64,000 bases of DNA, taken from the NCBI GenBank assembly GCA_965655095.1, contig OZ296658.1, positions 34,534,001 through 34,598,000 of the forward strand, given 5' to 3'. The DNA is from Haplodiscus bocki (lineage: Eukaryota). A program made the position numbers and the translations under genes. The notes below the pieces were generated by a model. The model was not told the origin of the DNA. It ran no database searches and saw only the letters and a program-made list of their open reading frames with translations. This document shows positions 25,373 through 26,716 of this stretch, piece after piece (position 1 is the stretch's first letter; each line of letters starts with the position of its first letter).

Positions 25373-26716
25373 ATGTCGCCAAACCCCCTGGCGCCAGCCT
25401 TCCTCCCTCAATTTCAATCTTCCTGTGGTCCAACTATTTCACTGGGTAACTCCACTACATTGAGTTTACTCTTGGCTCAATTATTTTGCGGAATGCCTCC
25501 ACAAATCATTCCACCTCATGCTCCTTCTATTGACCAACACATCACCGATGGCACGTTCCTCCCCACTTCTCTCCAGCTGACAAGTCAGTCTAAGCCGAAT
25601 GCGGCAGTTCATCAATCAACCCCTGAATTTTCAGCTCTTTTGTCTTCACCTCTACTACATCAAGCTTATTGTCTCCAGGCTATTCACAAAACTATCCAAC
25701 AGCTTAACCAACAATTGAAGGCAGCAAACCTAGACCGACAGGCATTACAACTCATTGCACTTCAATTGCAAAATGATTTCGCCTTACTGCGCTATTTGCT
25801 TTTCTCGGATAAAGATACTGCCGCTAAAGACTCCGCTACCGGTCCCATAATTAACCCTAACACTAACCCTAACCCTAACTCTACTTCATCTGCTTTCACC
25901 CTACCCTGCACTGATGACGCACAACTTCATCGTTCTACCCCGGTGGGCGCTATGGGACCATCCAGAGCGAAAACAAACAATCCTGCAAACGCCGGTCTTC
26001 AACCTATACTCAACACGCAGGAAGATCCTCCAACTACGGTGCAGAACCTCGCATCAAGAAATTGCAAACTAAAAAATTTGTTCGCCGATGAAATAGCAAC
26101 GTACACATCCATCACTGCGGGGATCCATTCCCAATATTTTTTCCTGTATGATAAAATTCGCCAGCTTGAACCTGGCAATTCAGACGCTATCATCTGGAAA
26201 ATGCTCTCAGTGAAATTTGTAGTTGACTACGCAAAAAAAGCCCGACCATCATCTAACCCCCTCATTGAACCGGCAACAAGTTTTAGTAGTCCTATCTTCA
26301 GGACTCATTCCTATGGATACAACTGTTTCATCAGATTCTATCCTTATGGTATTGGACCCGCTATGGGCAAGTGTGCTTCAATACAGTTCACCCTCTTCCC
26401 TGGCGACTACGACAATCTTCTGAAATGGCCCTTCTCAAAGCTCATTCACATTGGAATTCGAGATCAACTGGACCCAATGAACACCTGGATGAAGACAATC
26501 CGACCGGATCAGGAGCCAGCCTACAAGAGGCCCATGATGTCAACAAAATCTGGAGCCGCAACAATCCTAATCAAAAACTTTATTCCTCACCCTAAACTCT
26601 TTAGTGAAACTGAAGGTTTTCTAATTGATGGTGCGAGTTTTATAGAGATCAAATTTTCGGACCCTCCTGTGCTAAAACCTCACACCCAAACTTACCTCCT
26701 TTTCCCGTTTCCATAG
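25373..26716 (+). CDS. TRAF-like protein: low-complexity N-terminus, coiled coils and C-terminal MATH/TRAF-C domain; no RING or Zn fingers (447 aa)
   Basis: TRAF-C hallmarks IIWK, FSSPIFRTHSYGY, RFYPYGIG, SIQFTLFPGDYDNLLKWPF, IRDQ, YKRP and FLIDG. Heptad segments (IHKTIQQLNQQLK; VQNLASRNCKLKN) lie upstream. Intact and intronless. Confidence 0.9.
   Translation: MSPNPLAPAFLPQFQSSCGPTISLGNSTTLSLLLAQLFCGMPPQIIPPHAPSIDQHITDGTFLPTSLQLTSQSKPNAAVHQSTPEFSALLSSPLLHQAYCLQAIHKTIQQLNQQLKAANLDRQALQLIALQLQNDFALLRYLLFSDKDTAAKDSATGPIINPNTNPNPNSTSSAFTLPCTDDAQLHRSTPVGAMGPSRAKTNNPANAGLQPILNTQEDPPTTVQNLASRNCKLKNLFADEIATYTSITAGIHSQYFFLYDKIRQLEPGNSDAIIWKMLSVKFVVDYAKKARPSSNPLIEPATSFSSPIFRTHSYGYNCFIRFYPYGIGPAMGKCASIQFTLFPGDYDNLLKWPFSKLIHIGIRDQLDPMNTWMKTIRPDQEPAYKRPMMSTKSGAATILIKNFIPHPKLFSETEGFLIDGASFIEIKFSDPPVLKPHTQTYLLFPFP

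Follow-up and report, generated by a model that had tools for sequence, protein, structure and literature searches.

In the 64,000-nucleotide stretch of DNA analysed here (the window), an intact, intronless reading frame for a RING-less TRAF lies between a broken env gene and an LTR. The question that this locus raises is whose gene it is: one that a retroelement took from its host to antagonize innate signalling, one that the host has since kept under selection, as the first-pass annotation also considered, or a chance retrocopy. The arrangement itself is confirmed, since the plus-strand frame at 25373-26716 is free of stops, encodes 447 aa and matches PF21355 (TRAF/MATH, E=1e-15), and the same Pfam scan gave no RING and no zf-TRAF match. 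The features of the locus are as follows.

17822-17825, no strand: left target-site duplication (4 bp), identical to the 4 bp at 28511-28514.
17826-19868, plus strand: 5' LTR, matching sibling LTRs from its first base and ending before the LTR end; its 3' end is deleted along with PBS, gag and pol.
19900-22213, plus strand: post-pol region with small ORFs (e.g. 21508-21870, 21731-22204), aligning to the post-pol part of full-length copies; these ORFs have no Pfam match.
22214-22222, plus strand: putative first exon of ORF X, three codons long, in which an ATG is followed by a splice donor whose phase fits that of the ORF X acceptor.
22547-24728, plus strand: env, a gB/chuvirus-type fusion glycoprotein (PF24664, E=5e-12), broken by 3 frameshifts and 3 stops.
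24751-25373, plus strand: second exon of ORF X, with a splice acceptor at its start, broken by 1 frameshift and 1 stop.
25371-25375, plus strand: TGATG, in which the stop of ORF X overlaps the start of the TRAF ORF, a junction recurring in siblings.
25373-26716, plus strand: captured TRAF ORF, made of a PAM2-type N-terminus, first coiled coil, linker, TRAF-N helix and MATH.
25373-25408, plus strand: position of the PAM2-type motif, degenerate in the window copy, which has no PF07145 match; siblings match PF07145 below the cut-off (E 0.0012-0.012).
26039-26662, plus strand: TRAF-N coiled coil and MATH domain (Pfam, AlphaFold2/Foldseek, homotrimer model).
26745-26756, plus strand: purine-rich tract ahead of the 3' LTR, at a position common to all family A copies compared.
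26758-28510, plus strand: 3' LTR, with about 430 bp deleted just past its start by comparison with sibling LTRs.
28511-28514, no strand: right target-site duplication, the same 4 bp as on the left.

The element thus runs from 17826 to 28510 between 4-bp target duplications, which also bound the four other copies checked. Both LTRs are partly deleted, and the repeats at 18255-19875 and 26760-28378 are 96.9% identical. Within this pair, 18594-19616 and 27099-28121 differ only once over about 1 kb, against 7-8% on either side, which suggests a gene-conversion tract. Elsewhere in the window, a broken minus-strand gene adjoining the 3' LTR (28628-30811) contains two frames, one for an AIG1/septin-like GTPase and one for a MACPF domain, and a 146-bp satellite of about 14 units lies at 58490-60540. 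Unbroken sibling env matches PF24664 with E=3.7e-38, and env carries hydrophobic N- and C-terminal segments, so that signal, membrane segments and viral fusogen homology are all present, as in env-bearing (errantivirus-like) elements.

By sequence, the solved structures nearest to the TRAF ORF are TRAF domains. Its AlphaFold2 model (pLDDT 82) consists of a long helix and a TRAF sandwich, for which Foldseek returned TRAF4 (E=5e-12). The ORF has the TRAF-N coiled coil and the TRAF-type MATH that characterize the TRAF family; the RING and zinc fingers of TRAF2-6 are absent from it and from the closest host genes alike. When three chains of TRAF-N plus MATH were modelled together, the predicted trimer reached an ipSAE of 0.72, against 0.00 for the best control; the pass mark was reached by 21/30 solved pairs and 0/23 single chains (17/29 for eukaryotes), and contacts agreed at 93% or more between runs, with pLDDT of at least 73. 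This pass may stem from likeness to solved TRAF trimers.

We then consider whether the arrangement recurs. A search of the 1.5-Gb genome returned 4116 first-look candidates, which are not copy numbers, and the 150 that were scored were 81-100% identical. Families B, C, D and E were reached by starting from Pfam MATH, from env and from one distant relative. TRAF is present in four families (A, B, D and E), with at least hundreds of copies; family C has no TRAF. In full-length copies, the order is LTR-gag-pol-(about 3 kb of small ORFs)-env-ORF X-TRAF-LTR, and pol is arranged as PR-macrodomain-RT-RH-IN. The order PR-RT-RH-IN, the paired LTRs, the PBS (missing from the window copy), the purine tract and the short target duplication are those of Ty3/gypsy elements (Metaviridae); our RT tree covers this genome's own families. 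In midpoint-rooted RT and env trees, A, B, D and E cluster apart from C. The macrodomain, which is TARG1/OARD1-like (E=6e-27) in pol, is found in all five families, within pol in A, B, D and E and in the gag frame in C; a TARG1-type macrodomain is a second candidate counter-defence module.

The linkage that the first-pass annotation wished to see repeated alongside gag-pol is indeed repeated. Among the RT-anchored copies (37 of 40 matches, after dropping the query itself, one copy already sampled and one on a short contig), ORF X and TRAF are present in 37/37 and env in 35 (full in 31, partial in 4, none in 2). TRAF-bearing 20-kb copies have env in 30/31 cases and RT in 28/31, and for the subset found through TRAF the figures are 25/26 and 24/26. 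A single-copy, unlinked retrocopy is therefore not what we observed. Starting from env, TRAF is present at 16 of 30 loci, the remaining 14 belonging to family C; since family C copies without TRAF include LTR pairs at least 99.4% identical, the TRAF gene is not essential to the elements. The TRAF-bearing elements are recently active: in the youngest subfamily, the two LTRs of a copy are 99.3-100% identical, and 4 of the 7 copies fetched have all four long frames open.

Several copies depart from this general layout. Most or all of gag-pol is missing from L134/L135, L096/L097 and L150/L151, with LTR pairs 100%, 97% and 97% identical, and these are possibly non-autonomous forms that still have env and TRAF sequence. 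Five family-D TRAF ORFs stand in tandem with a 2791-bp spacing at G000 C10:65,794,031-65,805,914, and L058 and L073 are deletion copies fusing the N-terminus of env to MATH sequence. One to three related ORFs of 113-129 aa lie between the 5' LTR and gag (L100:1355-2489, L031:1826-2167), and an acidic antisense ORF recurs after pol; those scanned gave no Pfam match.

We measured selection on the differences fixed between subfamilies A1 and A2, as the first-pass annotation had recommended for TRAF and env. The dN/dS is 0.05 for TRAF-N plus MATH and 0.07 for env, indicating purifying selection on the element lineage; it is 0.17 for the first coiled coil, 0.23 for ORF X and 0.53 for the linker. 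MATH identity is 50-53% within the group of A, B and E and drops to 31-33% against D, with synonymous sites saturated between families; between A and E, MATH is 53% identical and env 91%. The low dN/dS and the retention of MATH at saturated synonymous sites indicate that the gene is therefore selected while the elements replicate. A neutral passenger or chance retrocopy might be expected to be dispensable, as TRAF is in family C, but a dN/dS of 0.05, retention in four families at saturated dS and a stop-start overlap with ORF X preserved in three spellings make this reading hardly credible.

Domestication of the window copy, with its TRAF ORF maintained by selection on the host, is a separate question, for which the open frame beside an env with 6 lesions is the obvious argument. 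This contrast of 6 against 0 is marginal, with P of about 0.04 by length and about 0.10 when corrected for mutable sites. Among 30 RT-anchored copies, TRAF is intact in 14 and env in 4, and the uncorrected lesion density is lower in TRAF (25 in 40.3 kb) than in env (76 in 65.4 kb; p=0.005), but in the 22 copies that were re-examined the lesions are mostly private and the difference loses its significance when mutable sites are taken into account. The frame is also still open in 2 of 10 siblings with at least three env lesions. In addition, the changes found only in the window copy look nearly neutral: in TRAF-N plus MATH, we counted 19 nonsynonymous and 7 synonymous changes (0.76), or 11 and 4 (0.79) for the strictly private ones, against 0.05 for the fixed differences (p=3e-6 for window-only versus fixed). 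For the whole ORF, the ratio is 0.42 when sub-lineage changes are included and 0.69 otherwise. A recorded protein, P0345, is identical to the product of the window ORF, which would suit domestication, but a 97% identical record, P0003, whose locus is unconfirmed, is truncated inside MATH, and the PAM2-type motif is degenerate in the window copy. Selection by the host on this copy thus finds no backing, and we consider domestication highly improbable. Because the window copy has neither gag-pol nor PBS and its own changes look neutral (about 0.8), its open TRAF frame is probably due to luck, and the copy appears to be a decaying relic.

Two host genes (G000 C5:9.06 Mb and C5:50.42 Mb) have the first coiled coil, TRAF-N and MATH in common with the element ORF. 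In both, an intron lies ahead of the last MATH strand, a site through which the elements read unbroken; since the elements are without this intron near the MATH end, capture from spliced host RNA is likely. Full-length RING-less relatives are 474 and 482 aa long, each with one finger-like remnant, and the 482-aa protein is a RefSeq entry for the acoel Convolutriloba macropyga. A separate gene with RING and zf-TRAF is present in the genome. In the tree, the element TRAFs fall on the side of the RING-less clade (support 87/83), where long branches meet; the tree does not single out the exact donor, and monophyly of the element TRAFs is neither shown nor rejected (p-AU 0.30), so that it places them relative to host TRAFs without deciding between single and repeated capture. 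The donor was likely a host TRAF already without RING, as judged by sequence. Capture of a host gene, as first proposed, is thus supported by host relatives and by recurrence, but RING loss as a viral innovation is not supported, the closest host genes having no RING either.

Beyond this genome, four recorded TRAFs (P0215, P0222, P0207 and P0203) run through the host intron position and are candidates for related elements in other species; P0203 and P0215, searched in the genome, had no close match. At 80 metagenome loci there were only distant TRAFs (23-38%), and their surroundings matched neither gag, pol or env nor X. A scan of viral contigs gave one giant-virus RING-TRAF; the contig concerned, which resembles a large DNA virus, contains a 568-aa frame that we take, from its motifs, to be RING-TRAF-like, along with one presumably IAP-like (L164:6795-8500).

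What the element has added to the TRAF is found at its tip. Families A, B and E start with the PAM2 consensus XXLXXXAXXFXP (PMC6486636), which family D and the window copy do not have. These families have 8-9 of their 12 N-terminal residues in common, as against 5 of the 48 that come after. The full consensus is present in 27/29 RT-anchored copies, in 57 of the 60 loci with a start found (68 scanned; the start pattern itself favours the motif) and in 0/13 host-type or D-like proteins. The gathering score of PF07145 (20 bits) is not reached, the best being 18.9 bits, and family E has no Pfam match though it fits the consensus. Judged from these comparisons, the putative PAM2 tip is an addition made in the element, absent from the host genes. 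As for partners, the only MLLE found in the host is in a UBR5-like MLLE+HECT gene, by a search that scored a single candidate; the search of the host genome for a PABP MLLE did not locate one, its best match being a different RRM protein, presumably SF3B4-like.

The groove has changed as well. Family D retains the beta-7 N-x-x-x-G motif of TRAF1, TRAF5 and the host genes, a motif involved in peptide binding; A, B and E have lost it, so that these three families do not have the canonical form of a receptor-binding TRAF. Loss of the groove motif in the very families that carry the tip, and conservation of the tip without its flanks, would suit a role at the RNA level, in which TRAF is a mere trimer scaffold for three PAM2 motifs and PABP is recruited or titrated to favour the element RNA. 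We regard this as improbable, as the dN/dS of 0.05 for MATH and 0.17 for the first coiled coil looks like more than a scaffold, and family D has a TRAF without PAM2.

PAM2 motifs bind UBR5, so that a degrader resembling Vif or Vpx might also be envisaged, in which the tip recruits this HECT ligase through its MLLE while MATH delivers a host restriction factor. The UBR5-like gene provides the only MLLE match in the genome and MATH diverges faster between families than env does, as would fit such a function; as only one candidate was scored in the MLLE search and the target is not known, we hold this to be very unlikely.

Upstream of TRAF, ORF X is Pro/Ser-rich, with an Arg-rich stretch and a small beta-barrel, and a related ORF exists in all five families. 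In families A and B, it has no ATG and begins at a splice acceptor in phase with the three-codon exon upstream of env, a layout found in 20 of the 23 RT-anchored copies with an env start found; a donor of this mini-exon kind was looked for and not found in C, D and E. ORF X is likely spliced, as far as its sequence indicates. Its sequence has no match in Pfam or PDB, and its model matches SH3/Tudor-like barrels weakly (Z up to 4.0). An Atlas lead that had rated ORF X with high confidence as Ets/IRF is not borne out by the fold.

The stop of ORF X and the start of TRAF overlap as TAATG, TGATG or ATGA at 60/60 loci with a recognisable start and in 27/29 RT-anchored copies; in family D, a 2-nt gap separates the two. 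UAAUG and AUGA are known reinitiation junctions in influenza B BM2, SART1 and caliciviruses (PMC2699510). The spellings are the same as in those systems; here, the putative reinitiation site belongs to an LTR element and comes after an accessory exon that is likely spliced.

Taken together, we hold with great confidence that linkage, occurrence in four families, purifying selection, an intron-bearing RING-less host relative, conservation of both motif and junction, and a decaying copy in the window describe this gene.

What it would act upon depends on the host, which is probably an acoel, going by the nearest named TRAF relative. In a 2026 study (PMC12849515), acoels are reported to be without TLR, MyD88, IRAK and NF-kB; the available part of that article does not mention TRAF. 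Our RHD search of the genome gave no match, but it also missed NFAT, reported in acoels, and is thus insensitive. The genome has TIR matches and one TNFR_c6 match over the cut-off. The antagonism of TLR/NF-kB suggested at first is weakened because acoels are reported without the pathway and because A, B and E have lost the beta-7 groove motif; in an acoel host, TLR/NF-kB would hardly be the target. The decoy may instead act on another pathway that depends on TRAFs.

This context bears on a classical dominant-negative action, in which the trimer occupies the tails of TNFR-family or other receptors or poisons host TRAF trimers and so blocks JNK or cell-death signalling, PAM2 being incidental. 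The TRAF fold, the trimer model and the host-like beta-7 motif of family D all fit, as do the RING+zf-TRAF gene, the TIR matches and the TNFR_c6 match of the genome. Set against this are the loss of the beta-7 motif in A, B and E, the lack of RING in the closest host genes themselves and the reported absence of TLR, MyD88, IRAK and NF-kB from acoels. For the lineage as a whole we judge it rather unlikely, although for family D a plain dominant-negative role is the better fit.

We favour instead a tethered decoy. Spliced X-TRAF RNA would be made first, and low-level reinitiation at the stop-start would yield the TRAF protein. The product would trimerise and dock by its PAM2-type tip on an MLLE protein, most likely poly(A)-binding protein, and host TRAF-pathway partners would be held away from their site of action. 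Sequestration of TRAF2 in stress granules interrupts TNF signalling. Expression by termination-reinitiation, trimerisation, MLLE binding and the counter-defence role seem to us to be at, or somewhat short of, an even balance, and the overall reading, that of a conserved accessory gene of a recently active env-bearing Ty3/gypsy clade with a predicted trimeric decoy tethered to MLLE proteins as its product, is evenly poised. One mechanism may not cover all families, because in D the PAM2 motif is missing and the groove is still like that of the host.

Accessory genes directed against host signalling characterize the complex retroviruses of vertebrates and the large DNA viruses. Much of what surrounds the gene is already known: gypsy elements with a gB-type env, LTR elements that have captured host genes, fish ERVs with macrodomains and DNA viruses with TRAFs. 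Ty3/gypsy elements with a gB-type (chuvirus-like) env (PMC13524379) have the same LTR-gag-pol-env order, with a PF24664 glycoprotein beside a gypsy-type pol, but here two more ORFs lie beyond env, and the main text of that paper contains no match for TRAF, MATH, macro or acoel. The megalocytivirus protein ISKNV ORF111L (PMC3352826) is likewise a virus-encoded TRAF, and iridovirus TRAFs are the top viral fold matches of the element TRAF; ORF111L, however, belongs to a large DNA virus, is described as having a RING and, according to the title, induces apoptosis via TRADD, the available text mentioning no PAM2. LTR elements bearing host-type genes, as here, are known from bdelloids (LTR retrotransposons with extra ORFs, PMC5408684), and macrodomains in retroelements from fish ERVs with CNPase or macro domains (PMC4977317); the accessible parts of these two papers name no TRAF or signalling adaptor, whereas the elements described here combine a macrodomain with env and TRAF. 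TRAF1 and RING-deleted TRAFs (PMC3697994) resemble the element ORF in having TRAF-N and TRAF-C without RING; the element differs by its altered beta-7 in A, B and E and its PAM2-type tip, and has the absence of RING in common with its host relatives. Our literature search, with most subscription papers and repeat databases outside its scope, found no TRAF conserved in a clade of LTR retroelements.

More tentatively still, these elements may form an invertebrate lineage of complex endogenous retroviruses with a counter-defence set, made up of a TARG1 macrodomain, a spliced regulatory ORF X and a PAM2-tipped TRAF trimer, and directed at an antiviral pathway that depends on TRAFs and needs neither TLR nor NF-kB. 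In genomes of this kind, what is annotated as 'TRAF expansions' may consist of retroelement copies. Should the host be an acoel, the TRAF gene would be a bait for finding the roles of TRAFs in an animal reported to be without Toll/NF-kB signalling; and if such a counter-defence lineage is real, the captured gene would point to undescribed immune signalling of acoels.
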